Shown: positions 7,784 to 51,385 of the stretch, piece by piece
Layout of the letters: the number at the start of each line of letters is the position of its first letter
Numbering within the stretch: the first letter of the stretch is position 1
IMG/VR virus record: IMGVR_UViG_3300045004_000088
Location: 192,001 to 253,983 of that record
DNA length: 61,983 nucleotides
Strand: one strand, 5' to 3'
Origin: a virus
The notes under the pieces: generated by a model
Databases searched by the model: none
Seen by the model: the letters and a program-made list of their open reading frames with translations, nothing else
Told to the model about the DNA's origin: nothing
Translations under genes and position numbers: made by a program

Positions 7784-8399
7784 ATGCTCAGGGGAACACG
7801 CATCATGACCGGCGGCGAGGCCGCACGGTTCGTCGCAACCACCGACACCATTCGGGGGTATCTTCATAGCTAAGGGCTACGAAGAGATCATCGTCCCGTC
7901 AATCTGGGAACAAGAAACCTTCGTCGGAAAAGCTGGCCCGGAGATCCTCGGCCAGATGTGGACATTTCAAGACAAGGGCGAACGCAACGTGTGCCTGATT
8001 CCCGAAGTCACCGGGATCATTCAGGAACTCTACAACACCGAGTGGAAAGCCCGCCCGAAGCCCATCCGCCTCTTCTACGTCAGCCGCTGCTACAGGTACG
8101 ACCGGCCGCAAAAAGGCCGCTACCGCGAGTTCACGCAGATCGGCGTGGAGTGCCTCGGCGGAAAAGATGATCGTCAGGAGGTGATAGACCTCTTGACAGG
8201 GTGTCTCGCCCAGTTCAAACTGAACTATCGACTGGTGCCTGCGGTGAAGCGGGGACTGGCCTACTACCTAGAAGACGGTTTCGAGGTGGAGTGCGACCAA
8301 CTGGGCGCACAGAAACAGGTGGCCGGCGGCGGCAGGTACAAAGAAGGGATCGGTTGGGCCATCGGCCTCGACCGACTCATACTCGCGATGGAGGGCTAG
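7784..8399 (+). CDS. truncated histidyl-tRNA synthetase-like class II core (about 205 aa), interrupted by a +1 frameshift in a G5 run near 7855-7861
   Basis: N-terminus RGTRIMTGGEAARF...TIRG in one frame, continuing as IFIAKGYEEIIVP...MWTFQDKGER...RYDRPQKGRYREFTQ (HisRS motif 2) ...GGGRYKEGIGWAIGLDRL (motif 3) in the +1 frame. No insertion or anticodon-binding domains. The downstream ORF is 7956..8399. Confidence 0.55.
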
Positions 8400-8529: not shown

Positions 8530-8745
8530 ATGTGTCTGCGCAACATGCGGACCACCCAAGAACGGCGGGCCAACCAGTGCGGCCCGTGGATCAACAAGGA
8601 TCACGGCGTAGTGGTCCCCATCAAGATCCGCCCCGGTCGGGTGAAACTCATCAACGCATGGGACGACATCGTTCGTGGTGACTACGGTCACCGTAGCTGG
8701 AAGCGGCACCGCCGGACCCAGTACCATCGTGTGAAAGAAATGTAG
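8530..8745 (+). CDS. hypothetical basic protein (71 aa)
   Basis: Internal ATG with GGAGG RBS. Confidence 0.35.
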   Translation: MCLRNMRTTQERRANQCGPWINKDHGVVVPIKIRPGRVKLINAWDDIVRGDYGHRSWKRHRRTQYHRVKEM

Positions 8746-9660: not shown

Positions 9661-10158
9661 TTGCGTTCGCGATTCGACAAGTGTTTCGAGTTCTACCGCT
9701 CGCAAGTCAACTGCGTCCACGGGTCCACGACCAACGCCGGGTTCATCGACACGATCCGCGTCCCCTACAACGGCGAAAACGTTCCGATCCGAGACATGGG
9801 TTGGACCTCGCCAAAAGACAGTGTAGTCGTCGTCAGGCTCCACGATCCAGCCGCGATCCCCGCCGCGTTACAATCGATCAAGACGGCCGGTTTGACCGCC
9901 TACTCGACCAAGACCGATGTGGTCGTCACGATACCCAGACCGTCGCTCGATACAATCGAGAAGAACAAAAAGCGGTGTCGCGAACTGGCCGAAGACGGCA
10001 AGGTCGCCATGCGTAAGGTGCGACAAGAGTTCAGGGATCTTTCCAAGAAGCTGCCGGACGACGAACGCAAAGCCGTCGAAAAGCAAATTCAACAATCTCT
10101 GGACGAGGGAATAGCCAGGATCGACACCGACTGTGAAGCCAAGATCAAAACGTTCTGA
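9661..10158 (+). CDS. frr: ribosome recycling factor (RRF) homologue
   Basis: Aligns along its length with bacterial RRF: RFDKCFEFYRSQ..., VTIPRPSLDTIEKNKKRCRELAEDGKVAMRKVRQEFRD, ...DDERKAVEKQIQQ. The listed start is TTG. An ATG at 9641 with an ideal AAGGAGA spacing is one frame off. Confidence 0.7.
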   Translation: MRSRFDKCFEFYRSQVNCVHGSTTNAGFIDTIRVPYNGENVPIRDMGWTSPKDSVVVVRLHDPAAIPAALQSIKTAGLTAYSTKTDVVVTIPRPSLDTIEKNKKRCRELAEDGKVAMRKVRQEFRDLSKKLPDDERKAVEKQIQQSLDEGIARIDTDCEAKIKTF

Positions 10159-16741: not shown

Positions 16742-18190
16742 ATGCCTTCAAAACTGACCGTTTTTAACGACTACTCGTTCCTTCAGACGGACAACAAACG
16801 TCTGAACTCGTTCCTTTATAACGCCCTCCGTCACCGACAGAAGGGATATTTCCACAGCCCCGCTTACAAGTCGCGGCGGTGGGACGGCTTCATCAACTTC
16901 TATACCCTCGAAAGTGGCAAGTTCCTGACCGGACTGCTGCCCGAAGTGTTGGTCGCTCTGGAAAAGACCGGCGAGGACTACGAGTTCGTTGACAACCGCA
17001 CGGACATCACATTCGACCACACCAAGATCGACCAGCACTTTCTCGACCAGTTCACCCCGACCCACTGGGCGGATGGGACGCCGGCCGAGAAAGTGGTGCT
17101 GGAAGACTACCAAGTCGAACTCGCCGAGGTCGCCGCCAAGTACCGCCGGGGTGTCGTGTTCGCGCCCACGTCGGCCGGTAAAACTTTGATCATGGTCTGC
17201 ATCATCAGGATGATCAAAAGGGGCATTCCGATCCTGATCCTCCAGAACCGGCGCGGCCTCGCACAGCAAAACTACAAGACGCTGATCCAGTGGGGCATCC
17301 CGAACGTCGGCTGCTGTTGGGGCGGCAAAGTCGAACCCAACTTCATCACCGTCGCCACGGTCCAGTCGCTAGAGAAGATCAAGAACCTGATCCCGAAGTT
17401 CAAGTGCCTGATCGTGGACGAGATCCACGACATGATGTCGGACCAGCCCAAGATCATCTACAAGGCGATGAAGAGTGCCTGCGTCCGCATCGCCATGTCC
17501 GCGACCCCGTTCAAGTACGGCGGCAAGGACAAAGTCCAGAAGTACATGGTGAAGGGCTTCTTCGGCCCGGAACTGCTGATCGAATGCGTCAAGGGCGGCA
17601 AGGTCACGACCAGTGAACTTCAAGAACGCGGACGACTCTCGAAGTCGAAGTGTACCTTCTTCCCGGTGCGGGAGCCGCACCTCGAATACGAGGTGTACCA
17701 AGACGCGGTTACTTTCGGCATCGCCGAGAACCAAGACTTCCACCAAATGGTGAAGAAGCTCGCTACCGCGCAAAAGGGCCGTACCCTGATCCTCGTTGAG
17801 CGGATCGCCCACGGGGACGCACTGAACTCGTTGATCCCAGGTTCGATCTGGGTGCGTGGGCAGGACGACGACAAGACCCGCGAAGAGGTCATCGCGAAGT
17901 TGTCGAAGGGTCGCGGCAACACGATTGCCATTGCGACTCAGGGCATCTTCAACACGGGCATCAACGTCTTCATCCACAACTTGATCAACGCCGCCGGTGG
18001 GCAGGCGGAACACACTATCATTCAGAGGATGGGTCGCGGCTTGCGGACCACAAAGGACAAGAGCGTACTCAACTACTACGACTTCATTTTCCACATCAAC
18101 GAATACCTGCTGAAGCACAGCAACAAGCGGGTGAAGATCCTTGAGGATGAGGGACACGAAGTCGAACTTCGCGAATTCGACATCCTATAG
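16742..18190 (+). CDS. SF2 DEAD/DEAH-box helicase (UvsW/RecG-like)
   Basis: Motifs APTSAGKT, DEIH, SATP and QRMGRGLR. Confidence 0.85.
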   Translation: MPSKLTVFNDYSFLQTDNKRLNSFLYNALRHRQKGYFHSPAYKSRRWDGFINFYTLESGKFLTGLLPEVLVALEKTGEDYEFVDNRTDITFDHTKIDQHFLDQFTPTHWADGTPAEKVVLEDYQVELAEVAAKYRRGVVFAPTSAGKTLIMVCIIRMIKRGIPILILQNRRGLAQQNYKTLIQWGIPNVGCCWGGKVEPNFITVATVQSLEKIKNLIPKFKCLIVDEIHDMMSDQPKIIYKAMKSACVRIAMSATPFKYGGKDKVQKYMVKGFFGPELLIECVKGGKVTTSELQERGRLSKSKCTFFPVREPHLEYEVYQDAVTFGIAENQDFHQMVKKLATAQKGRTLILVERIAHGDALNSLIPGSIWVRGQDDDKTREEVIAKLSKGRGNTIAIATQGIFNTGINVFIHNLINAAGGQAEHTIIQRMGRGLRTTKDKSVLNYYDFIFHINEYLLKHSNKRVKILEDEGHEVELREFDIL

Positions 18191-45693: not shown

Positions 45694-47778
45694 ATGCCGC
45701 CGCTGATCAAAGTCGGGGACCAGCCGACGCTGGTTCCCACTTCCAAGTACCCATACGCCACGTTCCCGTTCGCGAACTTCAACCCGGTCCAATCCGCCGT
45801 CTTCGAGTTTTACGACAAGGACTGCAACGCGGTCATCGCCGCCGCGACCAGTGCCGGCAAGACGGTCGTCGGCGAGATGTTCGCGAACCACGAAATCCAA
45901 GTCCGCAAAGGTACGTTCATGTACCTTTGCCCGCTCCGCGCACTCGCCCAAGAGAAGATCGATGACTGGACCGATCCGAGCCACCCGTTCAGCAAGAAGA
46001 AAGTCTCGATCTGCACCGGCGACTACCGCCTGACCCCCGAACGGAAGAAGGAACTGGCGGAAGCCGATGTCATCATCATGACATCCGAGATGCTCAACCA
46101 CCGCTGCCGCAACTTCAACAGCGAGGGCAACGCCTTCCTGAAGAACATTGGCACCATCGTCATTGACGAGAGCCATCTGCTCACCGTTCCGGGTCGCGGC
46201 GACCACCTCGAAGTCGGCCTGATGAAGCTGACGAAGATGAACCCGAACTGCCGCATCATCATGCTCTCGGCGACCATGCCCAACGTGGACGAAATCGCCG
46301 AGTGGGTCAGTTACAGCCTCACCGGGCGGGAAACCTACGTTCTTGTTTCCAAGTACCGCCCCTGCCCGCTCACGACCCACTTCGAGAACTACGACGACAG
46401 CGGGGACTACTACGAGCAGAAGGAAGAGTCCAAGATCGCGCGGGCGATGGAGATCGTCAAATACTACCCCAACGACAAGTTCCTGATCTTCTGCCACACG
46501 AAACGAACCGGCGAAAACATGTCGGAAGAGTTGAAGAGTGCCGGCATCAAGAACGAGTTCCACAACGCGGACTTGGACAAGGAAAAGCGGATCTCGCTCG
46601 AAAAGCGGTTCAAGACCGACCCGGACCTGAAGGTCGTTGTCGCCACGTCCACGCTGGCGTGGGGCGTGAACCTGCCGAGCCGTCGCGTGATCGTCTTGGG
46701 CGTCCACCGTGGCATCCAAGAGGTGCCGACCTACGACATCTTCCAGATGATCGGTCGTGCCGGGCGTCCGGCTTACGACCCGGCCGGTGACGCCTACATC
46801 CTCGTTCCGCTTTCTCAAGGGGCCGCTTGGCGGGCCAAGCTCAAAGCACAGCAACGCATCGACAGTCAGCTTCTGGAGAACGTCGGCGGGGTTCACAAGA
46901 CGATGGCGTTCCACGTCGTGTCGGAGATCTTCCACGGCGGCATCACCAACATGGACGAGATGCGGAAGTGGTACGAGCGGACGCTCGCCCACTTCCAGAG
47001 CAACGAACTCGATGACGTGGTCGCGGACGGCGTGATCAAGTCGCTCAAGGACTGTTACGCCATCAACGTCGAAGACGACGAGTTCACCGTCTCGACCATC
47101 GGCAAGATCAGCAGCCTGTTCTACTTCAGCCCGTTCGACGTGAGCCACCTGAACAAGAACTTCGGCAAGATGTTCAAAAGCGGCCACGAAACCGACGACC
47201 TTCGTGTCGCGCTCGCTCTCGGTGACATCGACAGCAACCGCCTCGGCTTCATTAGTCGAGCCGAACGGGAAGAGATCAGTGCATTCGAGCGTCGTCTCTC
47301 GGCCATTCCCGACCTGTTCAAAGAGACAAAGGCGAAGGACGGCGAAGAGGGCAAAGAGAAGCAACGCACGCTCAAGGACGGGTGCGTCAAGGCCGCGTAC
47401 CTCTATTACAGCCTTTTGACCGGGAGTCCGACCAAGATGCTGGCCGGTGCTTTGCGGGGGCTGAAGTTCGACGCTCCCCGCGTACTTCAGGTCGTTCAGG
47501 CACTGGACGCTCTGGGTGGCAAGAAGTGGGGCAAGGGTGACTTCCTCAGCGGGCTGGAGAAACGTATCACCTACGGCGTGCCGCCGCATCTCGTCGGTCT
47601 GGTAGGGTTGCCGAACCTCGGAGCGGTTCGCGCGAACAATCTCTACAAGGCCGGCATCAAGACGATGGACGATCTCGCCGCCGCGAAGCCTGAAGACGTG
47701 GTCAAGATCACCAAGATGAGTCGCAAGATGGTTGACGAACTCATCGAAGGTGCCAGCGTCAAGTCGATGATGGAGTGA
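45694..47778 (+). CDS. Ski2/Hel308-like SF2 helicase
   Basis: Motifs AATSAGKT, DESH, SAT and QMIGRAGR; C-terminal HhH-like region. Confidence 0.85.
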   Translation: MPPLIKVGDQPTLVPTSKYPYATFPFANFNPVQSAVFEFYDKDCNAVIAAATSAGKTVVGEMFANHEIQVRKGTFMYLCPLRALAQEKIDDWTDPSHPFSKKKVSICTGDYRLTPERKKELAEADVIIMTSEMLNHRCRNFNSEGNAFLKNIGTIVIDESHLLTVPGRGDHLEVGLMKLTKMNPNCRIIMLSATMPNVDEIAEWVSYSLTGRETYVLVSKYRPCPLTTHFENYDDSGDYYEQKEESKIARAMEIVKYYPNDKFLIFCHTKRTGENMSEELKSAGIKNEFHNADLDKEKRISLEKRFKTDPDLKVVVATSTLAWGVNLPSRRVIVLGVHRGIQEVPTYDIFQMIGRAGRPAYDPAGDAYILVPLSQGAAWRAKLKAQQRIDSQLLENVGGVHKTMAFHVVSEIFHGGITNMDEMRKWYERTLAHFQSNELDDVVADGVIKSLKDCYAINVEDDEFTVSTIGKISSLFYFSPFDVSHLNKNFGKMFKSGHETDDLRVALALGDIDSNRLGFISRAEREEISAFERRLSAIPDLFKETKAKDGEEGKEKQRTLKDGCVKAAYLYYSLLTGSPTKMLAGALRGLKFDAPRVLQVVQALDALGGKKWGKGDFLSGLEKRITYGVPPHLVGLVGLPNLGAVRANNLYKAGIKTMDDLAAAKPEDVVKITKMSRKMVDELIEGASVKSMME

Positions 47779-49936
47779 CCCACGGCCAGCCCGCAAGTGT
47801 GATAACGTCCGACTGCGGGCAGCAGTGTGCGTCGTGTTCGCTCGGAAAGACCTCGCTGTTGAAGTTCCACTTCTCGGCGAGGTCTTTCCGCATGTAGGTG
47901 GCCTCGATTGTGTCGGGGGTCATAGTGTCCCCGATCCACCCGTAGCCGCCGCAGTTGTTCGGGTGCGCATGAACGAGCTTGAACCTGTTGTTGATTGTTT
48001 GCAGGTATCGAATTTTGTCGTTCATGTTCTTCTTGTTCATGATCCCGTGCAACTCGATCATGATCACCTCGAACCGCGACAGGATCTTCGGATCGGTAAT
48101 TCTCAGTGTCTCCCACTCTGAATTTTCGATGTCGATTTTCAACCACATCCGTTTGCCATTCGCCGTCTTCGAGTGATCCAGCATCGTCTGGATCGAGTGT
48201 CCATCGACACCGATCCCGATTGGGAAGAACTCCGCGCCGGCCGGGATTTCTTCGGGTATGGCCTTAGAGTCGAACATTTTGATTTTGGCCCGACTCAGTT
48301 TTGCGAACTCTTTCTCGAAGTCGGAGTTGTTCCCGATTCCGGCCGAGATCAGGTAATCGACGTTCTGGATGTCCAGATCAGGCACGACGTAGCCGCCGTC
48401 GTTCTTCGAGCCGATCCTCTTTTTTAGCACCGGGCATTCGTACACGACGAGTTCTTTCAGAAGTCTGTGGCCTCTGTTTTGTCCTTTACGCAGCATCGCT
48501 TGCATCCCGTGCGTGACCTGAACGGGAACTTCGGGGAGGATTTCGTTGACCGCACGTTTGACACCCGGACAGCGTCCCCAGTTGTAGTCGTCAAGGATGA
48601 CCACGCCGTTTTCTACCATCTTCGGCCAGACCCATAGAAGTGCGTCCCGCGTTGATTGGTAGGTGTCGAAATCCAAGTGCGCGAAGGAGAAGGTCAGGTT
48701 GTCGAGATCTTTTGCCGTGTCGGGGAACCGGCCCGGATGTATCGAGACTTTGCACCCTGCCAAGAATTCGGTGACTTCGCTGAGGTTGCTCGCGAATTCG
48801 CCCTGCTTGTGTCCGGCGGGTTCTTGGTCGTCTTCAGGAATGCCCATCTCGAACCCGTCGAACATGTAGAGCGTTTTATTCGGAGCCGCGTAGGAGATAA
48901 GTTTGGCTGTGCCGCCGCGATAACACCCGCATTCAACCATGTCCCCCGGCAAGTTAGCGGTAGCAATCACAGAGTCTTGAATTACTTTCAGTCGGCCGGG
49001 GTCAACGAGGCTGCGGTCAGCAGTAATTTCGGACGGCATTTCGGCTATGTCCAAGATTGCGCCGGCGGCATCGATTGCGGCCGTTTTGAGCATTGCCATG
49101 CACATGGGAATGTTGCTGTGGTATTGATCCACGACCGGCAATGCACATTTCCTGTCAGATTCGCCGCCCACGACGATGCTTTTCCAACACCCGTTGCTCT
49201 TGCAACACGGCAACAGCCCTTGTGTGCTGAGGCTGATTTGGGTCGGGTAGCCGATCCAACTGATCGGTTCCCTGCCGCCGATCATGCAGATGTACGGTTT
49301 GCTGAATCCGGCCATGAAGTGGCCCAACGCTGTTATGCCGCCGATTCCGAAAGTAGCTCCGTGGCACAGTCGTAGCAGTTCCCTGAGAGTTGTTTGGCCG
49401 ATGAGGTTGATCGTGTCGTGTAGGGGCGGGTGGTTGTCTTTGGCCGCGCCGACTTGTACGAACCTGATCCGGTCCTTGTAGGTGTCCACTACGGACTGGT
49501 ACAGTTCGGTGCCGGCCCATTTTGCGGGGTAATCGTCCTTGTACCCCGCGTTGATTATTGCGTATGGTCCGTATTCTCCTGTCTTCTCGTTGAAAACCGA
49601 GAAGGTCTTTTCGGCAGCAGACAGGTAGAAGTGCGGCCTCGAAACTTGGAGCCTGAGCGGTAGCCCCAGAATATCGCCTAGGTGGTCGCAAAAGGCCGAT
49701 CCGAAGTGAAACGGGATGTGTGACTCGTTAATGCGGTCGTACCGCATGTCGATGTATTCACACTCCGCAGCACTCATCGGAGTTACCCACGGGTTGTTCG
49801 CGAACAGTTCGTTGTGGTTGGTCTGCATGTTCGTTAAGAACTTGCCGGGGAACTGTCGGTGCAAGCTTTCCAGAGCCATCGTAACTATGGCTACGTCGCC
49901 CGGACACAGACCGTGATTCAACAACAACTTTCTCAT
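47759..49936 (-). CDS. three-domain fusion: GT9 heptosyltransferase-like glycosyltransferase, TylF-like SAM O-methyltransferase, and a C-terminal methyltransferase-like domain
   Basis: GT9 N-terminus GDVAIVTMALESLHRQFP and C-terminus GATFGIGGITALGHFMAGFSKPYICMIGG. TylF motifs DMVECGCYRGGTAKL and VILDDYNW. ATGA-coupled to the upstream Ser-rich gene. Confidence 0.65.
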   Translation of the reverse strand: MRKLLLNHGLCPGDVAIVTMALESLHRQFPGKFLTNMQTNHNELFANNPWVTPMSAAECEYIDMRYDRINESHIPFHFGSAFCDHLGDILGLPLRLQVSRPHFYLSAAEKTFSVFNEKTGEYGPYAIINAGYKDDYPAKWAGTELYQSVVDTYKDRIRFVQVGAAKDNHPPLHDTINLIGQTTLRELLRLCHGATFGIGGITALGHFMAGFSKPYICMIGGREPISWIGYPTQISLSTQGLLPCCKSNGCWKSIVVGGESDRKCALPVVDQYHSNIPMCMAMLKTAAIDAAGAILDIAEMPSEITADRSLVDPGRLKVIQDSVIATANLPGDMVECGCYRGGTAKLISYAAPNKTLYMFDGFEMGIPEDDQEPAGHKQGEFASNLSEVTEFLAGCKVSIHPGRFPDTAKDLDNLTFSFAHLDFDTYQSTRDALLWVWPKMVENGVVILDDYNWGRCPGVKRAVNEILPEVPVQVTHGMQAMLRKGQNRGHRLLKELVVYECPVLKKRIGSKNDGGYVVPDLDIQNVDYLISAGIGNNSDFEKEFAKLSRAKIKMFDSKAIPEEIPAGAEFFPIGIGVDGHSIQTMLDHSKTANGKRMWLKIDIENSEWETLRITDPKILSRFEVIMIELHGIMNKKNMNDKIRYLQTINNRFKLVHAHPNNCGGYGWIGDTMTPDTIEATYMRKDLAEKWNFNSEVFPSEHDAHCCPQSDVITLAGWPWVTPSST

Positions 49937-50601
49937 TTCTTGCACCCGCACGGCTTACTCAGCCGACCGATCATCCTTTTCTTCGGAGTGATTTTGCTTT
50001 GAAAACCTTGCATAGCTATGGCTTCTACGACGACACACGGGTTACACGGGACAATTGCTGTTTGGTTTTCTTCCGTACCGGAGAAGCCCGGTGGGTTGTT
50101 GCAGCAGCAACCTTCTGTACATGTGTTGTCGCGATTTTCCCAGAACCCTCCTAGCCATTCCCACACACACTCTCCAGTACAAGTGACAACACCGCTACTG
50201 CTGGTGGAGCTTGGACTCACGCTCGAAGACGGGCTGCTGCTTGGGCTGCTCGACGGACTCGAACTCGGACTGGAACTCGGACTCGAAGACGGGCTGCTGC
50301 TTGGGCTACTCGACGGACTCGAAGACGAGCTTGGGCTTTTTGAGCTTGACGCACTTGAACTGCTCGACGGACTCGAAGACGAGCTTGGGCTGCTTGAGCT
50401 TGACGCACTCGAACTGCTCGAAGGTGAAGAACTGCTCGAAGGTGAAGAACTGCTCGAACTCGAAGGTGAAGAGGACGAAGACGATGAAGAACTCGAACTC
50501 GAAGGTGAAGAGGACGAAGACGAGGACGAAGACGATGAAGACGACGATCCGCACGCCGCCAAAGCTTCTTCGTATGTTTTGTATGGACCAATGAGTGGCA
50601 T
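49933..50601 (-). CDS. Ser/Pro-rich repeat protein with C-terminal Cys-rich module
   Basis: About 140-residue poly-S/P tract, then CTGECVWEWLGGFWENRDNTCTEGCCC...; ATG with AAGGAAAAC RBS. Confidence 0.55.
   Translation of the reverse strand: MPLIGPYKTYEEALAACGSSSSSSSSSSSSSSPSSSSSSSSSSSSPSSSSSSSPSSSSSPSSSSSASSSSSPSSSSSPSSSSSASSSKSPSSSSSPSSSPSSSPSSSPSSSPSSSPSSSPSSSPSSSVSPSSTSSSGVVTCTGECVWEWLGGFWENRDNTCTEGCCCNNPPGFSGTEENQTAIVPCNPCVVVEAIAMQGFQSKITPKKRMIGRLSKPCGCKK
50200..50580. repeat. degenerate 15-36-bp tandem repeats encoding poly-Ser/Pro
   Basis: Repeated ctcgaagacgggctgctgcttgggct and gaactgctcgaaggtgaa units. Confidence 0.7.
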
Positions 50602-50867
50602 GTTTTCCTTTATGCGTTGTCTGTCTTGAAACACACGGTTGCGGCAACATCACCTTCAAACCGTCCCGGCGCGGGAGGGACCATACAGAAACATCCAACG
50701 GCCGGATTGAAACATGTGCTGCTGACATTTGACCAAGATCCGTCTCCCCAAACCCAGTTGCAAACGCCGGGGCATCCGCCACCACCACTACTCGAACTCG
50801 AAGAGGAAGAAGAACTGCTCGCACTTGAACTCGAAGAAGGACTACTCGAACTCGAAGGCGAACTACT

Positions 50868-51107
50868 CTAGCTACTTGACGAACTCGATCCACAGACGTA
50901 GGCGTTCTTCTCTGCGCAACTGTTGAAGTACACGACTGTGTTCGTTTCTTGGCAACAGTACCAGCCGACGCAGCAACAGTTACAGCACCGCGCCCAACAG
51001 GAATCCGCACCGCTCATAGCCATAGTGCTGTTCATTGCAGCTTTGGCTCGTGCGGCGCGTTGTACCCTTTTGCGTAGGAACTCGGTGGCAATGATCGTCT
51101 GTCGCAT
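50868..51107 (-). CDS. Cys-rich protein ending in a poly-Ser run at an in-frame TAG; the frame continues after the TAG (50612..50867) with Ser-rich and a second Cys-rich module
   Basis: MRQTIIATEF...CWARCCNCCCVGWYCCQ...VCGSSSSSS-TAG-SSSPSSSSS...CPGVCNWVWGDGSW...; RBS AAAAGG. Confidence 0.45.
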   Translation of the reverse strand: MRQTIIATEFLRKRVQRAARAKAAMNSTMAMSGADSCWARCCNCCCVGWYCCQETNTVVYFNSCAEKNAYVCGSSSSSS

Positions 51108-51385
51108 TATGCCTTTTCGCCGAAGAAATCTGCCGGGTACTCGATCCTGACGGTGCCGTTGCCCGAAGTCGGGTGGCCCTTGTCGTCTTCGACCCACCAG
51201 CGGACCTGTTTCACTTCGATTCCCAGTTGGTCCATGTGACACTTGTCGCCGGGGAACACCGGCATGTGGTACTCTTTGCCTTGAATCAGGCAGGCAACTT
51301 TGCACTGCCCCTTCTTCCGGTCGTAGAGCATGCAGTTGTTGCAGATCTTTTCGATCACCTTCAGTTCCTTCTTCTTGTCTTCCAT
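51107..51385 (-). CDS. zinc-ribbon protein (92 aa)
   Basis: CNNC...C..C; RBS AAAGGG. Confidence 0.5.
   Translation of the reverse strand: MEDKKKELKVIEKICNNCMLYDRKKGQCKVACLIQGKEYHMPVFPGDKCHMDQLGIEVKQVRWWVEDDKGHPTSGNGTVRIEYPADFFGEKA

Follow-up and report, generated by a model that had tools for sequence, protein, structure and literature searches.

Nonsense alleles of phage genes are classically represented by the amber ('am') mutants of T4 and lambda. Programmed read-through of a stop codon, which yields a C-terminally extended isoform, is well established for the A1 protein of Qβ and for retroviral gag-pol, and context studies of amber suppression in E. coli indicate that a purine 3' of the stop favours read-through. 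To our knowledge, there is no established case of programmed stop read-through in a dsDNA huge phage. As for the genome-wide reassignment of TAG (code 15), it has been described in Lak, crAss-like and other phages (bioRxiv 10.1101/2021.08.26.457843; PMC9523058; PMC10607447). Borges et al. (bioRxiv 10.1101/2021.08.26.457843) used as criterion for a recoded phage an increase of more than 5-10% in coding density when TAG is read as sense, found low GC to be associated with stop recoding in phages, and proposed an order of events in which the suppressor comes first and the in-frame stops later.

The locus described here lies in a viral DNA stretch of 61,983 nucleotides, hereafter the window, which corresponds to the last 61,983 bases (78,697-140,679) of the JGI 3300044451 contig Ga0438297_000076 (140,679 bases). 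Judging by Pfam and PHROGs marks, the window covers genes for replication and nucleotide metabolism, with no recognisable structural or lysis genes in it. The features of the locus are as follows:

47759..49936, minus strand: gene directly following gene 2; its 725-aa product combines methyltransferase domains of the TylF and FkbM types
49933..50601, minus strand: gene 2, intact paralog of 222 aa, built on the same plan as gene 1 and with no stop
50030..50190, minus strand: C-module copy of gene 2, with the six-Cys domain pattern
50610..50612, minus strand: TAA closing the full-length frame of gene 1, read directly
50613..50774, minus strand: C-module of gene 1, a six-Cys domain of ~50 aa (profile search and AlphaFold2)
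50775..50867, minus strand: remainder of the Ser/Pro/Gly linker after the TAG, 31 codons in the same frame, with no start codon
50868..50870, minus strand: the TAG stop, in frame as codon 80 and within the Ser linker (direct reading)
50871..51107, minus strand: pre-stop part of gene 1, 79 codons, from the N-terminal Cys-cluster module to the sixth Ser codon of the linker
51107..51385, minus strand: conserved 92-aa 'anchor' gene, zinc-ribbon-like (CxxC…CH), whose homologs show 56-83% identity

A first-pass annotation of the window had reported an in-frame TAG interrupting a Ser-rich/Cys-rich gene, with the same frame continuing for 85 codons beyond it. Both statements are borne out by direct reading of the sequence, in which 79 sense codons are followed by the TAG (50870..50868) and then by 85 open codons. 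The frame does end, as had been stated, at a TAA ahead of the next ATG; its end coordinate is to be corrected, the TAA occupying 50612..50610 and the whole feature 51107..50610. The ATG of gene 1, at 51107 on the minus strand, shares one base with the TAA that closes the upstream 92-aa gene (TAATG). Translation up to the TAG gives MRQTIIATEFLRKRVQRAARAKAAMNSTMAMSGADSCWARCCNCCCVGWYCCQETNTVVYFNSCAEKNAYVCGSSSSSS, whose last residues are ...AYVCGSSSSSS and whose N-module carries SCWARCCNCCCVGWYCC … YFNSCAEKNAYVCG. The post-TAG frame, SSSPSSSSSPSSSSSASSSSSSSSSSSGGGGCPGVCNWVWGDGSWSNVSSTCFNPAVGCFCMVPPAPGRFEGDVAATVCFKTDNA, begins with SSSPSSSSSPSSSSSASSSSSSSSSSSGGGGCPGVCNWVWGDGSW and ends with ...FKTDNA, its C-module including the stretches GRFEGDVAATVCFK and FEGDVAATVCFK. 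Past the TAG, no in-frame ATG, GTG or TTG occurs before codon 62, which lies 30 codons into the Cys module, the first Cys of which is codon 32; as this earliest possible start falls inside the module, the C-module cannot be translated alone. Concerning the stop itself, the 9-mer that contains it, TAGAGTAGT, is one base away from TCGAGTAGT, which is present twice later in the same gene 1 linker, and it occurs a single time in the locus. The linkers of genes 1 and 2 together hold 33 TCG and 14 TCA codons, each of them one step from a stop.

Gene 2 starts at an ATG (50601) located ten bases past the end of gene 1 and preceded by an AGGA ribosome-binding site. It consists of MPLIGPYKTYEEALAACG, a short N-terminal region ending in ...AACG, a Ser/Pro linker of ~150 residues, the C-module and a basic C-terminal tail (…GRLSKPCGCKK). 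The proposed homology between the post-TAG module of gene 1 and the C-terminal module of gene 2 holds, with 38% identity and all Cys/Trp/Gly scaffold positions shared (BLASTP of the gene 1 vs. gene 2 pair, E=0.004). In the 725-aa protein encoded downstream of gene 2, the N-terminal 320 aa received no domain assignment. The corresponding gene is missing at the same position in a related locus (L008) and in the phage genome LR756511.1, both of which also have no Ser-linker genes. Speculatively, the 725-aa protein might modify glycans on the Ser-rich linkers.

Pfam and PHROGs hold no family for either Ser-rich protein, and look-ups of the exact products of the 79-aa and 222-aa ORFs returned no record. 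Likewise, neither the locus nor the C-module had a match among GenBank phages (blastn and tblastn), and nothing was found in word-indexed protein searches with the C-module or with the N- and C-modules, gene callers omitting these genes. In public gene calls, both Ser-rich genes are absent and antisense ORFs are placed over the Ser repeats (L003, 9066..9754), and short-read contigs repeatedly break within such repeats (ends of L001, L004, L009 and L091). Protein databases therefore under-represent such Ser-rich genes systematically, since gene callers skip them and contigs break within them.

The C-module displays the pattern C-x-G-x-C-x-W-x-W…W…TC…GC-x-C-x2-PP…G-R-F-E-G-D…C, and both modules of the window conform to the broader family pattern C-x-G-x-C-x-W-x-W…W…C…(G)C-x-C-x2-P…G-x-F/Y-x-G…C. 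A profile built from these two modules was run with HMMER against 1.84 billion representative proteins and matched 15 of them at E≤1e-3, with a total of 45 domain instances of ~50 aa and six conserved Cys. The domain often occurs in tandem, with Thr/Ser linkers between the copies (P0003, P0007, P0010). AlphaFold2, run on the C-module with 31 instances as alignment, predicted a four-stranded β domain with a mean pLDDT of 86.4. The fold search found no relative in the PDB; in BFVD, one uncharacterised phage protein resembles the C-module (TM 0.67) and is the sole clear structural match. Taken from its profile matches and predicted fold, the C-module is a real, previously undescribed β domain of ~50 aa with six Cys. 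The first-pass proposal that the frame after the TAG is coding finds its support here, in a conserved six-Cys domain which is moreover intact in the closest ortholog (see below).

Among the matching proteins, P0002 (574 aa) is arranged like gene 2 within one ORF, with a CGS…S/P linker, the module and a …GRVQKPCGCKE end. Its gene occupies a tail-fibre position, after the TerL, portal, capsid and tail-assembly (TAC) genes. The region carrying it is prophage-like, and a neighbouring gene bears the Pfam marks N_methyl and SBP_bac_10 (PF07596), the latter family being typical of Planctomycetes. As a whole, six-Cys domain sites are found at 50613..50774 and 50030..50190 (minus strand) of the window, in P0001-P0015, and in L007 (9339..).

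With the 92-aa anchor gene as probe, about 165 syntenic loci were retrieved. The closest relative is a Logan contig (L009, SRR29476945), whose anchor is 83% identical to that of the window. Directly after the anchor gene and ahead of the gene 2 ortholog, the start of which is seen, this contig has one ORF of 168 aa (L009:1298-1804) combining the same N-module (…NSCWARCCNCCCTGWYCC…YFNSCAEKDAYVCG), an unbroken Ser/Gly linker and the same C-module (…CTGVCQWSWNGTIW…GRFPGDVGATSC). In L009, the codon aligned with the TAG is TCG (Ser), the placement within the Ser run being arbitrary; the one-base difference between TAGAGTAGT and TCGAGTAGT points the same way. In a second ortholog (L091), the N-module is followed by at least 85 unbroken Ser-rich codons, up to the contig end. 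The Cys cluster of the N-module is kept in both (CWARCCNCCC in L009, CWAACCPQCC in L091), as well as in L008 (CWLACCPSCC). The stop is not conserved: the site is sense in L009, and the frame is open in L091 and in about 60 other family members. Among the about 165 syntenic loci, the succession of linker, stop, linker and conserved module is found in the window's own phage only.

This comparison with homologous phages, which had been proposed as a check, thus returned an intact gene with TCG at the TAG site, and the view that a single gene is interrupted by an amber codon is upheld by the uninterrupted 168-aa ortholog and by the paralogous gene 2, which shares the layout. Because the L009 ortholog is uninterrupted and has TCG at the site, gene 1 reads as one gene carrying a derived amber codon. 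Judged by its orthologs, then, gene 1 is a formerly contiguous gene of ~165 codons, of which the TAG is the derived state. Open frames of at least 70 codons on either side of a stop are found in the window for 18 of 645 TAG, 19 of 502 TAA and 53 of 2103 TGA triplets; as a long open frame past a stop is not unusual here, the case rests on homology and on the intact ortholog, which go well beyond what chance would give. Between the C-modules of the window and of L009, pN is 0.41 and pS 0.66, with every scaffold residue kept; dS being saturated in this comparison, these values show long-term constraint only. Loci L090 and L175-L179 were set aside as informants on the TAG site, as they belong to other sub-branches that are without gene 1 or have collagen-like variants of it.

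The gene that follows the anchor belongs to a hypervariable family, with 61 distinct versions in the about 165 loci (L008-L180). Its members share an N-terminal Cys cluster, of the form …CGCxCxCCPP… or CWxxCCxxCC, and have unrelated C-terminal regions of 185 to >830 aa, some of them with Ser-, Thr- or Pro-rich linkers and others (L175-L179) with collagen-like G-x-y repeats. Such a combination of a conserved head and a variable tail resembles host-recognition proteins, though the gene sits among replication genes. A second nonsense allele was found in this family, in L119 (IMGVR_UViG_3300042384_002197): around position 3081, it has a TAA where L036 and L037 have a Tyr codon, and the homologous sequence goes on in frame past the TAA. 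As this TAA is unreadable by a CUA suppressor, ordinary truncating mutations do occur and persist in the gene 1 family.

The possibility that TAG is a sense codon in the window was also analysed. Reading TAG as sense left the longest ORFs of the window unchanged, and code 15 gave no rise in coding density, from 0.841 (code 11) to 0.829, as estimated with a rough gene caller of our own rather than Prodigal. TAG terminates 12 of the 88 roughly called genes of the window, and the tails beyond it are short and non-coding-like. The helicase gene (16742..18190), for instance, ends with TAG, and its profile match reaches position 304 of 306 at residue 479 of 482. Between long open stretches, TAG is no more frequent than TAA or TGA. 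When all ORFs of the window were read through TAG and compared with relatives, no homology-supported in-frame TAG was found in any other gene of this replication and nucleotide-metabolism region. Eleven other TAGs with homology across them were rejected, as each falls either on the strand opposite to a called gene or in another frame of one. A read-through candidate at 8743..8745 was likewise rejected, since its downstream gene has its own ATG and its upstream ORF rivals a minus-strand call. TAG is thus used as an ordinary stop in the window, whose GC content is 55.6%, and the window does not qualify as recoded by the published criteria for such phages. Global recoding of TAG was rejected for the window on the grounds of its ORFs, its coding density, its genuine TAG stops and the lack of further in-frame TAGs; pyrrolysine or other special decoding was also rejected, with no CUA tRNA in the 82 kb seen.

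The following elements relate to the tRNAs of the window's phage and of a relative:

1..6480, plus strand: window part of the tRNA array (ARAGORN)
2598..2721, plus strand: tRNA-like element missed by ARAGORN (Rfam, 39.2 bits)
179588..179661 of LR756511.1 (L184, 30188..30261), minus strand: tRNA(CUA) with a canonical anticodon loop, C-U-CUA-A-A

Including 10 kb upstream of the window (L005, 5401..16422), the complete array holds 13 tRNAs: seven for Leu, three for Ser, two for Phe and one for Tyr. ARAGORN and Rfam detected no tRNA(CUA) in the 82 kb seen, which include this complete array. Apart from Phe, the array is composed only of species with a long variable arm (class II), and its seven tRNA-Leu cover all six Leu codons. 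The tRNA-like element at 2598..2721 has canonical acceptor, D and T arms, with an insertion of ~52 nt between the D arm and a UUCC-GUGAAAA-GGAA hairpin; it has a Phe-like GAA loop and is not a suppressor. It may be an interrupted or intron-bearing tRNA. Pfam marks place three translation genes beside the array on the plus strand, namely a tRNA-binding-domain protein (954..1298), a class II aminoacyl-tRNA-synthetase fragment (7956..8399; tRNA-synt_2b/His) and a ribosome recycling factor (9661..10158). Proteins of the window's phage are also found on contigs of 0.2-1 Mb, Logan contigs of this size carrying the identical 725-aa protein. Its genome probably exceeds 200 kb, of which ~82 kb were seen, so that a suppressor or in-frame TAGs of late genes may lie elsewhere in it.

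The 595-kb genome LR756511.1 ('uncultured phage') is collinear with the window over 22 genes and shares with it the local synteny of the anchor, the Cys-rich variable gene and the helicase. It has 63 tRNAs (ARAGORN) and a tmRNA. Its tRNA(CUA) is nearest to the tRNA-Gln(CUG) of the same genome. No sign of recoding was found in LR756511.1, neither as in-frame TAG in 6,410 aligned columns nor as an excess of TAG between coding-like stretches. A tRNA(CUA) of this type is also present on 26 IMG/VR contigs (L193-L218), many of them of 200-460 kb; L214 carries three copies of it and L206 two. Amber suppressors therefore exist in standard-code members of this phage lineage, and the combination of a tRNA(CUA) with the standard code in LR756511.1 leaves some probability to suppression in the window's phage. 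LR756511.1 also has a similar Leu/Tyr/Ser array, apart from its large class-I array (L189 29300..39120 vs. L185-L186). One of its elements (L186, 41614..41689, minus strand) was called by ARAGORN as 'tRNA-???' with a four-base anticodon, gaaa, and could be a frameshift-suppressor-like tRNA or a mis-call.

Among the explanations of the TAG, we regard as probable a recent nonsense mutation, TCG→TAG, in a fast-evolving modular gene that is backed by a paralog. A recent nonsense mutation had been listed among the initial explanations, and it is favoured by the TCG codon in the ortholog, the one-base change, the absence of downstream decay and the TAA allele of L119. A single C→A change would have turned a linker Ser codon, most likely TCG, into TAG. 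Translation would stop after residue 79 and yield the N-module ending in six Ser; the remainder of the linker and the C-module would not be made, or in trace amounts only. The mutation would probably be tolerated, with gene 2 supplying the same kind of C-module and the family turning over rapidly. The event would be very recent, given that no stop has arisen in the 85 codons past the TAG, which continue to specify a conserved domain able to fold. We infer that ribosomes actually terminate at the TAG of gene 1, and that the allele is close to neutral or fully so. The TAG is the consensus in every available assembly and is not obviously being purged. The undecayed C-module fits a very recent mutation and continued expression equally well.

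That the TAG might be no more than a sequencing error, as also envisaged in the first-pass annotation, is disfavoured by the JGI contig and three Logan assemblies, which are identical over the site. The three Logan contigs come from other runs and overlap the region with 100% identity to the window; the sequence at the TAG site is identical in L001 and L003, the former spanning the site and being reported in 5 samples. As four assemblies from two pipelines (JGI and Logan) agree on the TAG, it is present in the DNA and a random error is unlikely. An artefact could otherwise arise from an error in the low-complexity repeat, or from a consensus masking a population in which a sense allele is common. 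Such concerns are fed by the location of the site in a repetitive Ser-coding tract, a kind of tract in which the L001, L004, L009 and L091 contigs end, and by the fact that all copies of the TAG represent one clonal genotype, possibly from related samples, so that the age of the allele can be given no finer than 'recent'. They are countered by the agreement between pipelines and runs, and by the nature of repeat mis-joins, which recycle existing k-mers and would not yield a unique TAG-containing 9-mer; an artefact appears extremely improbable. With programmed leaky termination, the short N-module protein would be abundant and the full-length form rare, as for the coat and A1 proteins of Qβ. 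The stop does lie in frame, in a linker, exactly between two autonomous modules, it is followed by an A, and the module downstream is intact. Yet it is absent from L009, L091 and all the other family members, gene 2 shares the architecture without any stop, and the 130 nt at and after the TAG fold like shuffled sequences (z = +0.52), which is a weak test, bacterial read-through signals being poorly defined. As the stop is not conserved in orthologs, this type of regulation is unlikely, and we regard it as quite improbable overall.

The earlier suggestion of read-through or suppression is unsupported in its first half, for want of a conserved stop and of an RNA structure, and keeps its second as a possibility, through the tRNA(CUA) of the relative. 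Under suppression, the TAG would be read at useful efficiency by a host tRNA or by a Gln-type tRNA(CUA) encoded elsewhere in the phage genome, beyond the 82 kb seen, and full-length protein would result. The collinear LR756511.1 carries a well-formed tRNA(CUA) in a non-recoded genome, 26 IMG/VR contigs have the same tRNA type, and an order from suppressor to in-frame stops matches that of Borges et al. (bioRxiv 10.1101/2021.08.26.457843). The module after the TAG is intact, and the linker site is tolerant of any residue: in a disordered Ser linker, whichever residue were inserted would be harmless. Against suppression stand the absence of tRNA(CUA) from the 82 kb seen, whole tRNA array included, the presence of one in-frame TAG among about 88 genes with TAG freely used as a true stop, and a GC content of 55.6%, vs. 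the low GC linked to recoding. Moreover, the closest ortholog (L009) is sense at the site, LR756511.1 has no in-frame TAG in its 6,410 aligned columns, and the other nonsense allele of the family is a TAA, which a CUA tRNA does not read. Suppression is consequently held to be unlikely. A more doubtful version of it is that the locus illustrates the earliest step of a code change, i.e. a standard-code huge phage with an unseen Gln-type tRNA(CUA) and a first harmless in-frame TAG, in which gene 1 would be expressed at full length.

Taken as a plain nonsense allele, which is the preferred reading, the TAG of gene 1 is by itself of modest interest and matters mainly for annotation: both pieces should be treated as one interrupted gene and not as a 79-aa ORF followed by an 'intergenic' stretch. 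Gene 1 also marks a rapidly evolving, paralog-backed family of huge phages with natural truncating alleles (TAG here, TAA in L119). If the TAG were suppressed, the locus would offer an uncommon view of stop-codon reassignment by the proposed suppressor-first route, in a high-GC environmental huge phage and not in a low-GC gut phage.

Compared with the known systems, gene 1 resembles modular phage surface and tail-fibre proteins in its conserved N-terminal unit, low-complexity linker and Cys-rich β module. It differs from modular tail-fibre proteins in its location among replication genes and in having a module with no Pfam, PHROG or PDB match. As in Qβ A1 and gag-pol, the stop separates, without change of frame, an N-terminal unit from a C-terminal extension that forms a domain; unlike in those cases, orthologs do not share it, and the search for a stimulatory RNA structure was negative. 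With the code 15 phages, the window's phage has in common an in-frame TAG, a lineage rich in tRNAs and translation genes, and a relative with a Gln-like tRNA(CUA). It departs from them by its single in-frame TAG in the window, its genuine TAG stops, the absence of a rise in coding density and a GC content of 55.6%, as well as by the lack of a suppressor in the 82 kb seen and by an ortholog of gene 1 that is sense at the site. Finally, the am alleles of T4 and lambda differ from the TAG of gene 1 in that the latter is a natural consensus allele of an uncultured huge phage, situated in the disordered Ser linker of a paralog-backed, non-essential-looking gene; like them, it has a one-base origin, its downstream coding sequence is kept, and the full-length product would need a suppressor tRNA.
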